From: Escherichia phage D5505 | Length of the DNA: 64,000 nucleotides | Direction: 5' to 3' (one strand) | Sequence record: MK327929.1 | In this document: piece by piece, positions 53,045 to 63,263 of the stretch | Layout: every line of letters starts with the position of its first letter | How positions within the stretch are numbered: the stretch's first letter is position 1 | Translations under genes and position numbers: made by a program | Notes under the pieces: model-generated | The model's database searches: none | What the model was told of the DNA's origin: nothing | Seen by the model: only the letters and a program-made list of their open reading frames with translations

Positions 53045-56000
53045 ATGGCCGAGATTAAAAGAAAGTTCAGAGCAGAAGATGGTCTGGACGCAGGTGGCGA
53101 TAAAATAATCAACGTAGCTTTAGCTGACCGTACCGTAGGAACTGACGGTGTTAACGTTGATTACTTAATTCAAGAAAACACAGTTCAGCAATATGATCCA
53201 ACTCGTGGATATTTAAAAGATTTTGTAATCATTTATAATAATCGTTTTTGGGCAGCAACGGATAATATTCCAAAACCTGCTGGAAATTTTAATAGAATTC
53301 GTTGGAAAGCATTACGTACTGATGCCGTATATACAACCGTATCATCTGGACCATATCAATTAAAATCCGGAGAAGCAATTTCAGTAGATACATCAGTTGG
53401 CAATGACATTGAGTTTACTTTACCACCTTCTCCGCTTGATGGAGAAACCGTAATAATTCAAGATATCGGTGGAAAACCTGGCATAAATCAGGTTAAAATA
53501 AATTCTTCAAATCAGAGTATTGTCAATTTTAGAGGTGAACAGGTACGTTCAGTTTTAATGACTCATCCAAAGTCACAGATGATATTCATTTTTAATAATC
53601 GTTTGTGGCAAATGTATGTTGCTGATTATAGCAGAGAAGCTGCGATTGTTACTCCATCGACTGCGTATCAAGCACAATCTAATGATTTTATCGTACGTAG
53701 ATTTACTTCTGCTGCACCAATTAATGTTAAACTTCCGAGATTTGCTAATCATGGCGATATTATTAATTTCGTTGATTTAGATAAACTGAATCCACTTTAT
53801 CATACAATTGTTACTACATACGATGAAACGACTTCAGTACAAGAAGTTGGAACTCATTCCATTGAAGGCCGTACATCGATTGACGGTTTCTTGATGTTTG
53901 ACGATAATGAGAAATTGTGGAGATTGTTTGACGGGGATAGTAAAGCACGTTTACGCATTATAACAACTAATTCAAATATTCGTCCAAATGAAGAAGTCAT
54001 GGTATTTGGCGCGAATAATGGAACAACCCAAACAATTGAACTTCAGCTTCCGACTGATATTTCTGTTGGTGATACTGTTAAAATTTCCATGAATTACATG
54101 AGAAAAGGACAAACAGTTAAAATCAAAGCTGCTGGTGAAGATAAAATTGCTTCTTCAGTTCAATTGCTGCAATTCCCAAAACGTTCAGAATATCCGCCTG
54201 AAGCTGAATGGGTAACAGTTCAAGAATTAGTTTTTAACGGTGAAACTATTTATGTTCCAGTTTTACAACTTGCTTATATAGAAGATTCTGATGGAAAATA
54301 CTGGGTTGTACAGCAAAACGTTCCAACTGTAGAAAGAGTAGACTCTTTAAATGCTTCTACTAGAGCAAGATTAGGCGTAATTGCTTTAGCTACGCAAGCT
54401 CAAGCAAATGCTGATTTAGAAAATTCTCCACAAAAAGAATTGGCAATTACTCCAGAAACGTTAGCTAATCGTACTGCTACAGAAACTCGCAGAGGTATCG
54501 CAAGAATAGCAACTACTGCTCAAGTAAACTGCTACAGAAACTCGCAGAGGTATCGCAAGAATAGCAACTACTGCTCAAGTAAATCAGAACACTACATTCT
54601 CTTTTGCTGATGACCTTATCATCACTCCTAAAAAGCTGAATGAAAGAACTGCTACAGAAACTCGCAGAGGTGTTGCTGAAATTGCTACGCAGCAGGAAAC
54701 TAATACAGGTATCGATGATACTACAATCATCACTCCTAAAAAGCTTCAAGCTCGTCAAGGTTCTGAAACATTATCGGGTATTGTAACTTTTGTATCTACC
54801 GCAGGAGCTACTCCAGCCTCTAGTCGTGAATTAAATGGTACAAATGTTTATAATAAAAACACTAATAATTTAGTTGTTTCACCTAAAGCTTTGGATCAGT
54901 ATAAAGCTACTCCAACGCAACAAGGCGCAGTAATTTTAGCAGTTGAAAGTGAAGTAATTGCTGGACAAAGCCAAGAAGGATGGGCAAATGCGGTTGTAAC
55001 GCCAGAAACGTTACATAAAAAGACATCAACTGATGCAAGAATTGGTTTAATTGAAATTGCTACACAAAGTGAAGTTAATACAGGAACTGATTATACTCGT
55101 GCAGTCACTCCTAAAACTTTAAATGACCGTAGAGCAACTGAAAGTTTAAGTGGTATAGCTGAAATTGCTACACAGGTTGAATTCGACGCAGGCGTCGACG
55201 ATACTCGTATCTCTACACCATTAAAAATTAAAACCAGATTTAATAATACTGATCGTACTTCTGTTGTTGCTCTATCTGGATTAGTTGAATCAGGAACTCT
55301 CTGGGACCATTATACCCTTAATATTCTTGAAGCAAATGAGACACAGCGTGGTACACTTCGTGTAGCTACACAAGTTGAAGCTGCTGCAGGAACATTAGAT
55401 AATGTTTTAATAACTCCTAAAAAGCTTTTAGGTACTAAATCTACCGAATCGCAAGAAGGTGTTATTAAAGTTGCAACTCAGTCTGAAACTGTGACTGGAA
55501 CGTCAGCAAATACTGCTGTATCTCCAAAAAATTTAAAATGGATTGTGCAGAGTGAACCAACTTGGGCAGCAACTACTCTGATAAGAGGGTTTGTTAAAAC
55601 TTCTTCTGGTTCATTAACGTTTGTTGGTAATGATACGGTAGGTTCAACACAGCCATTAGAATCATATGAGAAAAATGGTTATGCAGTATCACCATATGAA
55701 TTAAATCGCGTATTAGCAAATTATTTGCCATTAAAAGCAAAAGCTGTAGATAGTAATTTATTAGATGGTCTAGATTCGCTCCAGTTCATTCGTAGGGACA
55801 TTGCACAAACAGTTAATGGTTCACTAACCTTAACCCAACAAACGAATCTGGGTGCCCCTCTTGTATCATCTAGTACTGCTACATTCGGTGGATCAGTTTC
55901 AGCAAATAGTACATTAACTATTTCTAATACTGGAACGGCAACTCGTCTGATTTTTGAGAAAGGACCTCAAACTGGAACAAACCCGGCTCAAACGATGACA

Positions 56001-56969
56001 GTCAGAGTGTGGGGAAATCAATTTAGCGGGGAATCAGACACAACACGTTCTACCGTATTTGAAGTTAGTGATGAAACGTCTAGTCATTTTTATTCTCAGC
56101 GTAATAAAGCTGGAAATATAACATTTAATATCAACGGTACAGTAACACCGATAAATGTTAATGCTTCAGGAACATTGAATGCAAATGGTGTAGCAACATT
56201 TGGTAATTCAGTCACTGCAACTGGTGAAATTATTTCTCGAAGCGCAAATGCTTTCCGTGCTATTAGCGGAAATTATGGTTTCATTGTTCGCAATGACGGG
56301 TCAGTAACGAATTTTATGCTTACTGCATCGGGTGATCAGACTGGCGGATTTAATGGATTGCGTCCTTTAGCTATTAATAATGCATCTGGCCAAGTAACGA
56401 TTGGTGAAAGCTTAATCATTGCCAAAGGTGCTACTATAAGTTCGGGTGGTTTGACTGTTAACTCGAGAATTCGTTCTCAGGGCACTAAAACATCTGATTT
56501 ATACACCCGCGCTCCAACATCTGATACTGTAGGATTCTGGTCAATTGATATTAACGATTCAGCCACTTATAACCAGTTCCCGGGTTATTTTAAAATGGTT
56601 GAAAAAACTAATGAAGTGACTGGGCTTCCATACTTAGAACGTGGCGAAGAAGTTAAATCTCCTGGTACATTGACTCAGTTTGGTAACACACTTGATTCGC
56701 TTTACCAAGATTGGATTACTTATCCAACGACCCCAGAAGCACGTACCACTCGCTGGACGCGTACATGGCAGAAAACTAAAAATTCTTGGTCAAGTTTTGT
56801 TCAGGTATTTGATGGAGGTAACCCTCCTCAACCTTCGGATATAGGAGCGATCCCATCTGATAATGGAATAATAGGTAATCTTACTATTCGTGATTTCTTA
56901 CGAATTGGTAATGTTCGCATTATTCCTGACCCAGTGAATAAAACTGTTAAATTTGAATGGGTTGAATAA
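53045..56969 (+). pseudogene. 34: long tail fibre proximal subunit gp34, reading frame interrupted by a 55-bp tandem duplication
   Basis: N-terminal ORF 53045-54610 and frame-shifted ORF 54528/54891-56969; removing one 55-bp copy yields 1289 codons, the T4 gp34 size. Confidence 0.85.
54473..54582 (+). repeat. perfect 55-bp direct tandem duplication (2 copies) inside gene 34
   Basis: 54473-54527 = 54528-54582 (ACTGCTACAGAAACTCGCAGAGGTATCGCAAGAATAGCAACTACTGCTCAAGTAA). Confidence 0.95.
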
Positions 56970-58093: not shown

Positions 58094-58098
58094 ACTGA

Positions 58099-58116
58099 GG
58101 GAGCCTTCGGGTTCCT
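58099..58116 (+). terminator. terminator after gene 35 (GGGAGCC-UUCG-GGUUCCU + U-tract)
   Basis: Stem with G.U pairs, UUCG loop, followed by TTTTTTCTTT. Confidence 0.6.
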
Positions 58117-58124
58117 TTTTTCTT

Positions 58125-58132
58125 TATAAATA
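58125..58132 (+). promoter_or_regulatory. late promoter TATAAATA (gene 36)
   Basis: Exact TATAAATA ~25 nt upstream of gene 36. Confidence 0.6.
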
Positions 58133-58155: not shown

Positions 58156-58806
58156 ATGGCTGATTTAAAAGTAGGTTCAACTGTAGGTGGATCTGTCATT
58201 TGGCATCAAGGAAATTTTCCGTTGAATTCAGCCGGTGACGATGTACTCTACAAATCATTTAAAATATATTCAGAATATAATAAACCACAGGCAGCTGATA
58301 ATGATTTCGTTTCTAAATCTACTGGTGGTACTTACACAGGCCCAGTTACTATTAATTATGGTGTAAATAGTTATCTTCAATTAAGTAATAATGAAACCCC
58401 CATCCGAATTCGTTCTGGTGGCGGCACTGGCAATACTCTTGTAGTTGGTGGCTCTTCTGGCGGTATTAGTTTTAGACCAGCAGGTAGTGAAATCACTACT
58501 GGACAAATTACTATTACGCCAGAAGGTTTGACAACATTTACCAAAGCTGTAAAGGCTCCATCTGTAACTGTTACATCTACTCCTTCCGCAGCATCTGATG
58601 CTACTCGTAAAGATTATGTTGATGGAGCAATAAATACTGTTACAGCAAATGCAAACTCTAGGGTATTACGCTCTGGAGACACTATGACAGGAAATTTAAC
58701 TGCGCCAAACCTTTTTTCACAGAATCCTGCATCTCAACCTTCACACGTTCCACGATTTGACCAAATCGTAATTAAGGATTCTGTTCAAGATTTCGGCTAT
58801 TATTAA
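58156..58806 (+). CDS. 36: long tail fibre distal connector gp36
   Basis: 216-aa ORF; T4 gp36 ~221 aa; synteny. Confidence 0.85.
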
Positions 58807-58814
58807 GAGGACTT

Positions 58815-61760
58815 ATGGCTACTTTAAAACAAATACAATTTAAAAGAAGCAAAACTGCAGGTCAACGTCCTGCTGCTTCAGTATTAGCCGAAGGTGAATT
58901 GGCTATAAACTTAAAAGATAAAACAATTTTCACAAAAGATGACTCAGGTAGTGTTATAGAATTAGGTTTAAAATATGGAGGAACTATAAATGGGTCTTTA
59001 GAGGTTACAGAAAATATAACTGGAACTTTAATTGGAAATTCTAGCACAGCTACTAAATTGCAAACACCTAGGAAAATTAATGGTATATCTTTTGATGGGT
59101 CAAAGGACATTACCTTAACTCCATCTGACATAAATGTCAATAGCACAACATTTATAAAAAATAATGGCGAATTACCTACTGATGCTAATTTAGATACGTA
59201 TGGGCCCATTGAAGAATATCTTGGTGTTTGGTCGAAATCTACTTCAACAAATGCGCAACCAGCAAATAAATTCCCAGAAGAAAATGCCGTAGGTGTACTA
59301 GAAGTGTTTGTGGCCGGCCAATTTGCTGGCACTCAGCGTTATACTGTAAGATCTGGTAACGTCTATATTCGTTCCTTATCTGCTAAATGGAATGGCGTCG
59401 ATGGTCCATGGGGTGTGTGGCGTAATGTTCAAGCGTCAACTCGTCCACTTTCACAAACGATTGACCTTGATAGCTTGGGAGAATTAGAACATTGTGGCTT
59501 ATGGCGAAACAGTTCAAGCGCAATCGCATCATTTGATCGCCATTATCCAGAAGAAGGATCAGCCGCACAAGGATTTTTAGAAATATTTGAAGGTGGTTTA
59601 TACACGAGAACTCAGCGTTATACTACCCGCATGGGTATGGTTTATACTCGTTGTCTCGCTGCTGCATGGGATGCTAGTGCACCTAAGTGGGAGGAATGGA
59701 AGCAGGTTGGTCATGGCACACCAGCGACTTTCTATGATGGTGACCTTAATGATTTTAAAACTCCTGGGTTATATAATATTTTAGGCACCGATGCCGTTAT
59801 TAACTGCCCTACAGGTGAAGGTTTGCCGCCTGTTATTGTTGGTTTGCTGGAAGTTAAACAGCGTGCTTCTGGTGGTGCTATTTTCCAAAAATTTACTACT
59901 GCCGGAACAGGCGCAACTACTCGCGGACGTATTTTTGAGCGTGCATATACTGGTGGTGCGTGGGGTGCATGGAACGAAGTATATACATCTTACTCTCTGC
60001 CAATTACTTTGGGTATGGGTGGTATTAAAGCTCAATTAGCGGAGTTAGATTGGCAAACCTTTGATTTTGTTCCTGGTAGTATGTTTAGCGTTCCTTTAAA
60101 CAAAATAAAGAACATGCCAGCAAATATGGATTGGGGGACGATTGACGGAAACTTGGTTATGTTTTCCGTTGGTCCTAGCGAACACACTGGCACAGGGCGT
60201 ACTGTTCAGGTTTGGCGCGGTACTGTATCCCAGACAAACTACCGTTATTTCGTTGTTCGTATCGCTGGTAATCCAGGAAGTAGGACTAATACTTGTCGCC
60301 GTGTTGTTCTTGAAGACGGATCACATACTTGGACTGCTCAACAAAACTTTAGGGGATTGCTGAATATCACTGCTGCTGTTAATCTTGGTGCTAATCAGAA
60401 AATTTCACTTGCTCCAGGAGCATATATTCAAGCCCCTGCTAGCGGTTCTGGTTCTAATACTTACGCAAATCAGAATACTACCATTGCGCCATTATATCAG
60501 GCTATTGACGATTCAAATAAAAACCAGTTTGCGCCAATTGTTAAACAGAAAAATACTGTAAGTAATATCACCTTTGCCACTGGTATGGCTATAGGTACAT
60601 CCGAATATAAGATCATTGCTCAGGGTGATTTATCCGCTGATGGAACAGCAGATGGGTTAAAACAGTGGACTTTCATGCCGTCAGGTTATTTTAAATCTCC
60701 AGGGCGTGTATATGTCGGTGATGCGTTCCTTAATACAGATGGTAATATTGCCGGTTCAATCTGGAAGAAATATAACAATGCGACAAATTTAGATGCTGCC
60801 TTGAATACTCGCGTAGGTAAAGGCGGTGATACGATGACAGGTCGGTTAACAATCAATGCACCTAATGATTCTATTGTATTATCAACGACTGCTAGTAATT
60901 CTTTGCATATTCGTGGTGACATAGACGGGACTGGTAACTGGTATATTGGTAAGGGTGGTGCTGATAATTCGCTAGCATTTTATAGCTATGCTTCTCAGGC
61001 GGCAGTACATATCACAAACAATGGTGAGATTGCGTTAAACCCGCAAAATACCGCAATGGTTAACGTTAACCGTGACCGTGTACACATTAACGGTTCTGGA
61101 TGGATTGCTAGACAACCGGGTGATTGGGGCAACCAATGGCGAGTAGAAGCTCCATTATTCGTTGATCATGGTTATGTTTCACAGGATTGTTATTATCCTA
61201 TTCTTAAAGCAAGAAGCGTTATAACCAATCAAGGATATAGCACCGCTGTTGACTTTGGTATGCGTCGTATTCCATCACAGTGGGGGCAAGCAATCATTCG
61301 TGTCGGATCCACGGAGGCTTCTCCTGATGCTGGACACCCACAAGCTGTGTTTGAATTCCATCATGATGGATTCTTTTATACACCAGGAAATGGTAGCTTT
61401 AGCGATGTGTATATTCGTTCTGACTCCCGTCTCAAGATTAATAAAGAAGAATTAGAATATGGAGCGGTCGAAAAAGTTTGCCGACTGAAAGTTTATATTT
61501 ACGATAAAGTTAAGTCTATTAAAGACCGTAGTGTTATTAAACGTGAAGTTGGTATTATTGCTCAGGACCTTGAAAAGGAATTACCGGAAGCTGTATCTAA
61601 AGTTGAAGTTGATGGATCTGATGTTCTGACAATTTCTAACTCTGCTGTGAATGCTCTTTTAATTAAGGCTATTCAGGAAATGAGTGAAGAAATTAAAGAA
61701 TTGAAAACGCCTCTCTTTACTAAAATTGTTCGCAAAATTAGTAAATATTTTAAATTCTAA
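58815..61760 (+). CDS. 37: long tail fibre distal subunit gp37 (T2/T6-type, with probable C-terminal intramolecular chaperone domain)
   Basis: 981-aa ORF; N-terminus [13 protein letters not shown]... conserved with T4 gp37; lacks T4 His-rich tip; C-terminal ...[18 protein letters not shown]... resembles auto-cleaving chaperone domains. Confidence 0.85.
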
Positions 61761-61766
61761 CAACAA

Positions 61767-61781
61767 GGGGGAAATGCCCCC
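61767..61781 (+). terminator. stem-loop GGGGG-AAATG-CCCCC after gene 37
   Basis: 5-bp G/C stem followed by TTTGG and the gene 38 SD. Confidence 0.5.
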
Positions 61782-61796
61782 TTTGGAGTATAAATT

Positions 61797-62576
61797 ATGG
61801 CAGTAGTTGGTGTTCCTGGTTGGATTGGAAGTTCAGCCGCAAATGAAACAGGACAGCGCTGGATGAGTCAAGCGGCTGGTCAATTAAGATTGGGTGTTCC
61901 TTGCTGGATGAGTCAATTTGCAGGTCGCTCACGAGAAATTATTCACACGCTTGGAGCAGACCATAACTTCAATGGTCAATGGTTCCGAGATAGATGTTTT
62001 GAGGCAGGTAGTGCACCTATAGTGTTTAATATTACAGGTGATTTAGTATCATATTCTAAAGATGTTCCTTTATTCTTCATGTACGGAGATACACCAAATG
62101 AATATGTTCAGTTAAATATACATGGCGTAACGATGTATGGTCGTGGAGGTAATGGTGGTAGCAATAGTCCTGGCTCAGCTGGGGGTCATTGTATTCAAAA
62201 CGATATTGGTGGGAGACTAAGAATTAATAATGGTGGAGCTATTGCTGGCGGTGGCGGTGGCGGTGGCGGCGGATATTATTCTCCTTTTTCACAAATGAGA
62301 TTAACCTTTGGCGGTGGTGGGCGTCCGTTTGGTGCACCTGGCGGATCTATTGATATGCAATCAGGCGCAACTGCTGGTACTATTTCTGCACCTGGCTCAG
62401 GATCCGTGAATGGTATCTATAATGGTGGAAACGGTGGTGAAGTAGGTTCCGCGGGAGGTAGATGCAATATTCGCGGTCAAGGATCTGAATATAATGGCGG
62501 CGCTGCTGGTTATGCTGTCATAGGGTCTGCTCCAACGTGGCAAAATGTTGGAGCAATATATGGTCCAAGAGTATAA
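61797..62576 (+). CDS. 38: receptor-binding adhesin gp38 (T2/T6-type, glycine-rich motifs)
   Basis: 259-aa ORF with poly-Gly blocks (GGGGGGGGG, GGGG) separating variable segments; T4 gp38 is a ~183-aa chaperone instead. Confidence 0.85.
62251..62277 (+). repeat. (GGY)9 trinucleotide run encoding Gly9 in gene 38
   Basis: GGCGGTGGCGGTGGCGGTGGCGGCGGA. Confidence 0.85.
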
Positions 62577-62606: not shown

Positions 62607-63263
62607 ATGGCAGCACCTAGAATATCATTTTCGCCCTCTGATATTCTGTTTGGTGTTCTAGATCGCTTGTTCAAAGATAACGCTACCGGGAAGGTTCTTG
62701 CTTCCCGAGTAGCTGTCGTAATTCTTTTATTTATGATGGCGATTGTTTGGTATAGGGGAGATAGTTTCTTTGAGTACTATAAGCAATCAAAGTATGAAAC
62801 ATACAGTGAAATTATTGAAAAGGAAAGAAATGCACGCTTTGAATCTGTCGCCCTGGAACAACTCCAGATAGTTCATATATCATCTGAGGCAGACTTTAGT
62901 GCGGTGTATTCTTTCCGCCCTAAAAACTTAAACTATTTTGTTGATATTATAGCATATGAAGGAAAATTACCTTCAACAATAAGTGAAAAATCACTTGGAG
63001 GATATCCTGTTGATAAAACTATGGATGAATATACAGTTCATTTAAATGGACGTCATTATTATTCCGACTCAAAATTTGCTTTTTTACCAACTAAAAAGCC
63101 TACTCCCGAAATAAACTACATGTACAGTTGTCCATATTTTAATTTGGATAATATCTATGCTGGAACAATAACCATGTACTGGTATAGAAATGATCATATA
63201 AGTAATGACCGCCTTGAATCAATATGTGCTCAGGCGGCCAGAATATTAGGAAGGGCTAAATAA
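62607..63263 (+). CDS. t: holin T
   Basis: 218-aa ORF; single N-terminal TM segment (VAVVILLFMMAIVWY) and large periplasmic domain; T4 T length. Confidence 0.9.
   Translation: MAAPRISFSPSDILFGVLDRLFKDNATGKVLASRVAVVILLFMMAIVWYRGDSFFEYYKQSKYETYSEIIEKERNARFESVALEQLQIVHISSEADFSAVYSFRPKNLNYFVDIIAYEGKLPSTISEKSLGGYPVDKTMDEYTVHLNGRHYYSDSKFAFLPTKKPTPEINYMYSCPYFNLDNIYAGTITMYWYRNDHISNDRLESICAQAARILGRAK

Follow-up and report, generated by a model that had tools for sequence, protein, structure and literature searches.

The window analysed here is a stretch of 64,000 nucleotides from Escherichia phage D5505 (sequence record MK327929.1). Two open reading frames on its plus strand, also reported in a preliminary description made from the letters alone, occupy the locus under study: gene 37 (58815..61760, 981 aa; PHROG 1699, E 8e-204), the precursor of the distal long tail fibre subunit, and gene 38 (61797..62576, 259 aa), a receptor-recognising adhesin of the T6 type. 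Both peptides of gp37 quoted in that description lie within its translation, and the two products are 100% identical to the D5505 database entries QBO61257.1 (gp37) and QBO61258.1 (gp38). The locus is preceded by gene 36 (58156..58806, +; 216 aa; Pfam Phage_T4_gp36, PHROG 1425), encoding the small distal fibre subunit or hinge connector, and bounded downstream by the holin gene t (62607..63263, +; Pfam Phage_holin_T, E 2e-117). The resulting order g36-g37-g38-t is that of T2, and ES19 likewise carries gene 38 between g37 and t. At the DNA level the module displays 99.7% nucleotide identity with phages ES19 and ES21; near-twins of gp37 and gp38 are found in ES19, ES21, LF73P1 and fPS-65, the gp37 of ES19 being 99.7% identical to that of D5505. 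A 156-aa antisense reading frame (58862-59332) lies inside gene 37 and is taken as spurious. Elsewhere in the genome, gene 34 is broken by a 55-nt sequence repeated perfectly in tandem (54473-54582), which none of 500 related records contains; assemblers commonly use k-mers of this length.

An exact match to the T4-type late promoter box (TATAAATA; 58125..58132, +) is located upstream of gene 36, and a terminator-like hairpin (58097-58118) lies after gene 35 and ahead of this box. Judged by what is known of T4, the box is probably the start of a late transcript spanning g36-g37-g38. Immediately ahead of gene 37 and of gene 38 no perfect late-promoter box was found; the sequence TATAAATT just before the start of gene 38 was considered as a promoter of this gene and rejected, as it lies too close to the ATG. 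A scan for sigma-70 promoters returned fewer sites than shuffled controls, and an Rfam search of the whole window gave no match. Between gene 37 and gene 38 a GC-rich stem-loop is present (61764..61785, +; MFE -14.7 kcal/mol, z-score -2.3), and the equivalent position is occupied in T6, T2 and T4 by hairpins of differing stem and loop sequence.

The first 64 residues of gp37 (58815..59006, +) represent the conserved T-even N-terminus, with 75% identity to aa 1-64 of T4 gp37 and 73% to aa 1-71 of T2 gp37 (blastp), in line with the T4-like N-terminus noted before. This is the only part of the protein that is well conserved with T4 gp37; beyond aa 64 merely weak local matches of 27-33% identity are seen. 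The preliminary description had also remarked that the His-rich needle tip of T4 is missing, and indeed D5505 gp37 contains no HxH motif, as opposed to eight in T4 gp37. Conversely, an S74 domain is present in D5505 and lacking in T4 gp37; the N-terminal 64 residues and the gene order are what the two phages have in common. A PDB search with gp37 yielded no match to the T4 gp37 tip. By its sequence, gp37 is not a member of the T4-type receptor-binding needles, which have iron-binding HxH repeats and depend on a gp38 chaperone of the T4 type.

A tandem array of three knob-like repeats, each about 87 aa long, follows at aa ~121-395 (59175..59999, +). Aligned from hand-picked segments (alignment A1), the repeats share L, G, P, G-LE, Q, T, R and W..W..V columns; they were not seen when gp37 was compared with itself by blastp. 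A length-matched homologue carries the title 'pyocin knob domain-containing S74 family peptidase' at NCBI. Further downstream, aa 692-742 (60888..61040, +) match gp37_trimer (Pfam PF20744) at 22.2 bits (cutoff 21.7). An NCBIfam search with gp37 and gp38 returned no match for either. Compared with T6, D5505 gp37 displays 91% identity over aa 1-524 and 86% over aa 676-981, whereas the central aa ~525-675 cannot be aligned to T6, which indicates a mosaic. The gp37 of T2 (1341 aa) shares only the N-terminus and the C-terminal chaperone with D5505, the latter at 42% identity.

This chaperone, of the Peptidase_S74 type (Pfam PF13884), occupies aa 869-981 at the extreme C-terminus of the 981-aa fibre protein (113 aa; 61419..61757, +), where an auto-cleaving intramolecular chaperone of about 110 aa had been proposed. 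The Pfam match itself covers aa 869-927 (E 6.3e-10, 39.6 bits vs. a cutoff of 22), which corresponds to positions 1-57 of the 58 in the profile; weak PDB matches of this region are MYRF and the tail fibre of a further phage, 8jov ('Putative tail fiber protein'). The chaperones of endosialidase and of T5 pb1 carry a dyad of an initial serine and a lysine five residues later, and this spacing is found in the SDSRLK of D5505 with S869 and K874. Autoproteolytic release of the gp37 chaperone in T2 was reportedly described by Drexler et al. in 1986. In the alignment with S16 gp37 (6f45_A), DVYIR|SDSRLK of D5505 falls on DLNVS|SDRRIK, i.e. the dyad comes to lie on the cleaved site of S16, for which self-cleavage and the release of a 113-aa chaperone have been shown experimentally (PMC7917993). 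The S16 chaperone is thus equal in length and shares the S-D-x-R-x-K motif, whereas S16 gp37 cannot be aligned to D5505 ahead of the cleavage site. From this homology, gp37 is predicted to cleave itself at DVYIR868|S869DSRLK874 and to free 113 aa, with S869 and K874 as the putative catalytic residues of the chaperone.

The second gene of the module belongs to a well-defined adhesin family. Its product matches the Pfam families GP38 (PF05268; E 3e-70, 236.8 bits vs. a cutoff of 25) and Gp38_N (PF21721; E 6e-20, 71.4 bits vs. a cutoff of 25) as well as PHROG 2056 (E 1e-110), and two PDB entries are found by sequence (9v85, E 4.5e-78; 6f45_D, E 5.9e-49). An AF2 model of gp38 (pLDDT 89, pTM 0.80) gave significant Foldseek matches for the same two structures only, namely 9v85 of PP01 (TM 0.87, rmsd 2.4 A) and 6f45_D of S16. 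Hence a fold of beta-helix and polyglycine-II sandwich is predicted by the model, and the organisation of T2/T6/S16-type adhesins ascribed to gp38 in the preliminary description holds at the level of family, sequence and fold. An assembly chaperone as in T4, with the receptor bound by gp37 itself, would be the other role conceivable for a protein of this name. Its probability appears negligible, and sequence data already contradict it: with T4 gene 38 just position and name are shared, T4 gp38 comes from an unrelated family according to an annotation note, the D5505 protein matches adhesin families and adhesin crystal structures, and gp37 has neither the HxH needle of T4 nor a PDB match to its tip.

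[quoted passage not shown] These tryptophans have been described as prongs that dock into the gp37 trimer (PMC6851490). The C-terminal half displays, at the level of sequence and model, the features of a polyglycine-II sandwich of glycine-rich motifs, with the loops between them predicted to point away from the fibre towards the receptor. Glycine makes up 23.6% of gp38, with runs of nine (aa 151-159) and four (aa 172-175) residues, which agrees with the poly-Gly blocks described earlier. Across 61 gp38 homologues the glycine motifs are invariant and the loops range from 0 to 100% identity; a single deviation of D5505 from the family motifs concerns GRM3, which begins with G4 rather than G5.

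Comparison with characterised relatives, as suggested in the preliminary description for T2, T6 and S16, places gp38 more precisely. S16 gp38 (PDB 6F45) aligns over the full length with ~44% identity (TM 0.74-0.77) and shares the three tryptophans and the glycine motifs, whereas its loops differ; S16 binds OmpC. The receptor-binding domain of PP01 gp38 (PDB 9V85) is the closest match in both structure and sequence, with a nearly identical beta-helix region, but from ~aa 158 on the loops of this OmpC binder are unrelated to those of D5505, so the receptor differs (PMC12892980). T2, a FadL/OmpF binder, has a gp38 of the same family and the same gene order, yet the tblastn alignment extends over aa 1-114 only, at 50% identity. 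T6 gp38 (AF052605), the classical Tsx-binding adhesin, is 92.7% identical and has the same module architecture. By sequence, gp38 of D5505 is T6-type and not T2-type.

[quoted passage not shown] By homology, gp37 would trimerise aided by its own C-terminal S74 chaperone. After folding of the beta-helix, S869 would act with K874 as its base to cleave between R868 and S869, and the chaperone of 113 aa would depart. The exposed end of the trimer (...DVYIR) would then be capped by one gp38 monomer, which would insert its N-terminal helices with W9, W22 and W37 into the gp37 tip. The family matches of both proteins are far above chance and the features are kept in hundreds of phage records. This is an ordinary, catalogued receptor-binding tip, in which gp37 with a self-cleaving folding domain is capped by a glycine-rich gp38; architecture and mechanism are already known from the proteins in GenBank, two crystal structures for the family and decades of genetics.

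The variable loops of D5505 gp38 match those of T6 except for S165P, D186N, A193G, A198S and N233D, with HVS2 being 92% and HVS4 100% identical; in total, T6 gp38 has 261 aa, with an extra glycine at 109-110 and G5-RP, versus 259 aa and G4-RP in D5505. Within the sandwich domain, 1 to 5 substitutions separate D5505 from WilhelmHis, RB5 and T6. The gp38 of WilhelmHis differs by seven substitutions and one missing glycine in D5505, of which A193G and that glycine alone fall into the receptor-binding sandwich domain. WilhelmHis depends on tsx, as confirmed by genetic complementation (PMC8594841), and Tsx is also the E. coli receptor for the T6-like adhesins of T6, RB5, RB14 and PST (PMC3157838). 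As the loops of D5505 hardly differ from those of T6, RB5 and WilhelmHis, the nucleoside channel Tsx is probably its receptor on E. coli K-12.

A different working receptor for the same module, namely OmpA, the LPS inner core or both, as in PST, HP3.1 and fPS-65, is suggested by several relatives. The gp38 of fPS-65, identical to that of APTC-EC-2A, differs from D5505 gp38 only by an extra glycine, and fPS-65 uses LPS inner-core heptose on Yersinia (PMC7917993). HP3, with a closely related gp38, is partly reliant on OmpA and LPS on ExPEC strains (PMC8092219), resistance to HP3 and HP3.1 mapping to LPS genes and ompA, and PST, with a few HVS changes, recognises Tsx plus OmpA (PMC3157838). However, D5505 has Q166 where the OmpA-using PST (167R in T6 numbering) and HP3.1 (Q166R) carry arginine, and the tested phages with a D5505-like loop set (T6, RB5, RB14, WilhelmHis) are Tsx-dependent on E. 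coli K-12. We therefore regard OmpA or LPS as the working receptor as unlikely and retain Tsx for K-12; the data on fPS-65 and HP3 imply that Tsx is not the whole story on non-K-12 hosts, where LPS core or OmpA are possible alternatives.

The longer glycine tract of gp38 (aa 151-159; GRM2 in the numbering of Trojet 2011) is encoded at 62247..62273 (+) by a (GGC GGT)n microsatellite. It had been described as a (GGY)9 run at 62251-62277. The run of nine glycines stands, but the position is shifted by 4 nt and the codons are GGC GGT GGC GGT GGC GGT GGC GGC GGA, i.e. eight GGY and one GGA. Tandem Repeats Finder reports a perfect 6-nt repeat, TGGCGG x4.0, at 62246-62269. The tract is followed by the T6-type variable loop HVS2 (12 residues, aa 160-171, including Q166; 62274..62309, +), the block of lowest confidence in the AF2 model (pLDDT 70), and by the second glycine block GGGG-RP at the start of GRM3 (62310..62327, +). 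The latter reads GGC GGT GGT GGG CGT CCG in D5505 and GGC GGT GGT GGT GGG CGT CCG in ES19, IP008 and PYps15T, and thus has one GGT fewer than in all close relatives; the missing glycine falls into a column conserved to at least 90% (alignment A2).

The same description had proposed the Gly9 tract as a site of slippage and recombination for host-range switching. For slippage, natural variants in close relatives provide support. G12 replaces G9 in PYps14T and AV121 by way of one extra 9-nt unit (GGCGGCGGT), and this difference separates the near-identical isolates PYps15T (G9) and PYps14T (G12). Tandem duplications of G5-6 together with the HVS2 loop are found in PYps47T and ZN18 (L007) as two independent events, and the reciprocal deletion of the loop in P0020, P0021 and P0025. 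The gene 38 of HP3.2, 11 nt shorter, was considered as a further case and rejected, as the change lies in the N-terminal region, where there is no glycine tract. Short glycine-codon microsatellites would thus undergo replication slippage and unequal exchange, giving rise to in-frame length variants, and D5505 would carry one such event, (GGT)3 to (GGT)2 in GGGGG-RP. The indel of D5505 itself concerns the second glycine block and not Gly9. As far as the sequences compared indicate, Gly9 has a fixed length in most relatives and is not hypervariable: among 110 measurable representatives, 50 have G9 and 37 have G8. A metagenome scan with a loose pattern gave, among the matches listed, mostly random ones and at least four real gene 38 copies, all of them G9/G5.

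The G4-RP of D5505 may also be an error of sequencing or assembly, the true gp38 then being the 260-aa protein of ES19 and fPS-65. It is found on a single contig only and is absent from the 113 family representatives, 109 of which have G5-RP, and from the 60 closest phage records; furthermore, the artefact-like duplication in gene 34 belongs to the same genome. On the other hand, the clean in-frame loss of one (GGT)3 unit is what replication slippage yields, other in-frame variants of the glycine tracts occur in independently sequenced, viable isolates, and exact 3-nt drops are rare in short-read assemblies. On balance an error seems somewhat unlikely. Deletions of whole glycine-rich motifs are lethal in T6 (PMC3157838), and hence a real G4-RP copy could be impaired.

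The link from tract length to host range is of an inferential nature. In one reading, the glycine-codon runs would be a selected, contingency-like hypermutable switch and not merely structurally required sequence that sometimes slips. In its favour, one and the same pair of tracts has changed repeatedly, by the step from G9 to G12, by two independent HVS2 duplications, by deletions and by a frameshift in the gene copy of the HP3 record; both HVS2 duplications occur in phages isolated on Yersinia pseudotuberculosis, and PYps47T lysed 52 of 128 strains compared to 78-87 for its siblings. However, the conservation of tract lengths given above is strong, a gene of standard length (783 nt) is present in 52 of the 60 closest records, the polyglycine-II sandwich structurally requires glycine (PMC6851490), and the host-range differences are correlations between phages that differ elsewhere too. 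A dedicated switch therefore appears improbable. Somewhat less so, yet still doubtful, is the proposition that the gene 38 microsatellites repeatedly generate in-frame variants of adhesin length (G9 to G12, G5 to G4, loop duplication and deletion) that could retune loop geometry and host range, with the loop duplications of two unrelated Yersinia-isolated phages being possibly adaptive and the G4-RP of D5505 a functional variant.

The module decides which bacteria phage D5505 can attack, and its grouping with the T6/Tsx specificity is useful when choosing or engineering therapeutic phages. The added value is modest and lies in a catalogue of natural in-frame length changes of glycine runs in close relatives, which provides concrete examples for the old proposal of glycine-rich motifs as rearrangement hotspots. 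If the doubtful proposition above were true, a motif regarded as invariant would have a working natural variant in the G4-RP of D5505.

Gene 37 (58815-61760, 981 aa) and gene 38 (61797-62576, 259 aa) are both present as proposed in the preliminary description, and the gp37 peptides it quoted are found in the translation. The pair is flanked by gene 36 upstream (58156-58806), itself preceded by a TATAAATA late-promoter box, and by the holin gene t downstream (62607-63263). The products match QBO61257.1 (gp37) and QBO61258.1 (gp38) of the 168,049-bp Escherichia phage D5505 contig in GenBank residue for residue. The 3.76-kb module displays 99.7% identity with ES19, ES21 and LF73P1, and 94-99% with dozens more Tequatrovirus isolates of E. 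coli, Shigella and Yersinia. The earlier reading as a T2/T6-type host-range module holds overall, with small corrections: this is a textbook T6-type gp37-gp38 module, which in D5505 is already deposited, annotated and known. The stop codon of gene 37 and the ribosome-binding site of gene 38 are separated by a GC-rich stem-loop (61764-61785; -14.7 kcal/mol), probably an intercistronic mRNA-stabilising element; its position is conserved in T6, T2 and T4, while stems and loops vary (CTTCGG in T2 and T4).

The description of gp38 as a glycine-rich adhesin of the T2/T6/S16 family is supported by Pfam (GP38, E 3e-70; Gp38_N, E 6e-20) and by sequence matches to two solved structures, 9V85 (E 4.5e-78), the receptor-binding domain of PP01 gp38 (PMC12892980), and 6F45_D, S16 gp38 (E 5.9e-49, full length). 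An AlphaFold2 model built with 62 homologues reached a mean pLDDT of 89 and a pTM of 0.80, with the variable loops as the lowest-confidence blocks; a Foldseek search of the PDB with this model was significant for the same two structures only (TM 0.87 and 0.77). Glycine accounts for 23.6% of residues; nine stand in a row at aa 151-159 (G9) and four at aa 172-175 (G4). In the alignment with S16 gp38, W9, W22 and W37 correspond to the three tryptophan prongs by which that protein docks into the gp37 trimer. Identity to T6 gp38 is 92.7%, whereas T2 gp38 aligns over aa 1-114 only, at 50%. Hence, of the combined "T2/T6-type" label, the T6 part stands and the T2 part does not: by sequence the adhesin is T6-type.

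For gp37, a T4-like N-terminus without the histidine-rich needle tip of T4 had been described, and the comparison agrees: identity to T4 gp37 is 75% over aa 1-64 only, followed by weak local matches (27-33%), HxH motifs number 0 versus 8 in T4, and a PDB search with gp37 returned no match to the T4 needle. T6 gp37 displays 91% identity over aa 1-524 and 86% over aa 676-981 with an unalignable middle, so that gp37 is a mosaic relative to T6. The high G+C content of central gene 37 (59250-61500; 40-46%, against 33-39% in the flanks) coincides with this segment and is consistent with a mosaic origin. The shaft contains three tandem knob-like repeats of ~87 aa each (aa ~121-395; 59175-59999), and the NCBI title of a gp37 homologue reads "pyocin knob domain-containing".

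The supposed auto-cleaving chaperone segment of ~110 aa corresponds to a Pfam Peptidase_S74 domain, matched from profile position 1 at S869 (39.6 bits; cutoff 22). Salem et al. (PMC7917993) report that the 113 C-terminal residues of S16 gp37 act as an intramolecular chaperone, with autocleavage at DLNVS^SDRRIKK, and they predict cleavage at DVYIR^SDGRLKI in related phages. In a phmmer alignment, the segment spanning R868/S869 pairs with DLNVS-SDRRIKK of S16 gp37 (PDB 6F45). Domain match and alignment together thus predict self-cleavage between R868 and S869, the site sought in the preliminary description, with S869 and K874 as putative dyad; the fragment released would be exactly 113 aa, as in S16.

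We consider Tsx the receptor of this gp38 on E. coli K-12 with a probability of about 0.65, based on its T6-type loops, near-identity to Tsx-using relatives, and Q166 in the first variable loop. In the sandwich (receptor-binding) domain, WilhelmHis (Bas35) differs by A193G plus one glycine only and RB5 by five substitutions; tsx dependence of WilhelmHis was shown with complementation (PMC8594841), and Tsx is also the E. coli receptor used by T6, RB5, RB14 and PST (PMC3157838). Arginine replaces Q166 in PST (167R, T6 numbering) and in HP3.1, and both show OmpA use. The Q166R change of HP3.1 (locus L144, 151-933) arose in a laboratory-evolved phage; in HP3.2 (L143, 151-922), gene 38 has lost 11 nt around codon 50, which truncates the annotated N-terminus. 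As a caveat to Tsx, fPS-65, whose gp38 is equal apart from one glycine, has the LPS inner core as its receptor when infecting Yersinia (PMC7917993).

This glycine belongs to the G5-RP motif, the second glycine block. Relative to ES19, IP008 and fPS-65, one GGT of the (GGT)3 run in GGC GGT GGT GGT GGG CGT is lost, leaving GGGG-RP with its glycine codons at 62310-62321. The alignment column is at least 90% conserved, and G5-RP is found in 109 of 113 family representatives; of the other four, two with G4 and one with G6 were left by larger deletions, and the fourth is listed with G4. Among the 60 closest phage records, 52 have the standard 783-nt gene 38, and the deletion is absent from the remaining 8. 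The loss is unique to the D5505 genome among the sequences examined. It may also be a sequencing error, and trust in it is lowered by an artefact-like feature of the same genome. A perfect 55-nt tandem duplication (54473-54582) inside the proximal tail-fibre gene 34 (53045-56969) shifts the frame, leaving two ORFs of 521 and 692 aa; it was found neither in ES19 or T4 nor in any of 500 related phage records matched. Since 55 nt is a k-mer size that assemblers commonly use, the duplication is probably an untrimmed circular-contig overlap rather than biology.

The first glycine run had been given as (GGY)9 at 62251-62277; it actually lies at 62247-62273 and reads (GGC GGT)3 GGC GGC GGA, i.e. eight GGY codons and GGA, in which Tandem Repeats Finder detects 4.0 perfect copies of the hexanucleotide TGGCGG. 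Across the family, tract length is strongly conserved: of 110 measurable representatives, 87 carry G9 or G8. PYps15T (L019, 301-1080), lacking the Asn at GIY[N]GGNGG, encodes Gly9 as (GGC GGC GGT)2 GGC GGC GGA; its sibling PYps14T (L021, 3083-3874) and the unrelated AV121 (L022, 3086-3877) encode Gly12 with three such units, a difference of one GGCGGCGGT unit. In PYps32T, gene 38 has the 792-nt length of PYps14T, and the HP3 record contains a frameshift within the run. Larger changes also occur: PYps47T (L020, 3283-4119) and ZN18 (L007, 4001-4834) carry tandem duplications of the G5-6 plus first-loop (HVS2) unit, on different codon backgrounds, the products of two independent unequal exchanges between the two glycine runs, and three metagenomic proteins show the reciprocal deletions. 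Yersinia pseudotuberculosis was the isolation host of both PYps47T and ZN18; for PYps47T, an "insertion of 15 aa" is all that the published description mentions. P0034, encoded by a chimeric ORF of 303 aa on a contig of an E. coli genome, starts as gp38 (N-terminal part and beta-helix, as far as the glycine run) and continues as a gp37-like S74 chaperone C-terminus; either recombination at this run or chimeric assembly has produced it.

In T6, engineering that removes a complete motif or loop from gp38 is lethal (PMC3157838). The proposed role of the glycine-codon runs in host-range switching is a hypothesis; the PYps phages lyse 78, 85, 87 and, for PYps47T, 52 of 128 strains, figures that relate to glycine-run changes as a correlation only. 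Across the family, N-terminal domain, beta-helix and loop set assort independently, a modular design already known (PMC3157838). The anticipated slippage and recombination is borne out in comparison with relatives: the G9/G12 difference, both duplications, the reciprocal deletions and the GGT loss, as in-frame variants, show that the glycine-codon runs of gene 38 do slip and recombine.
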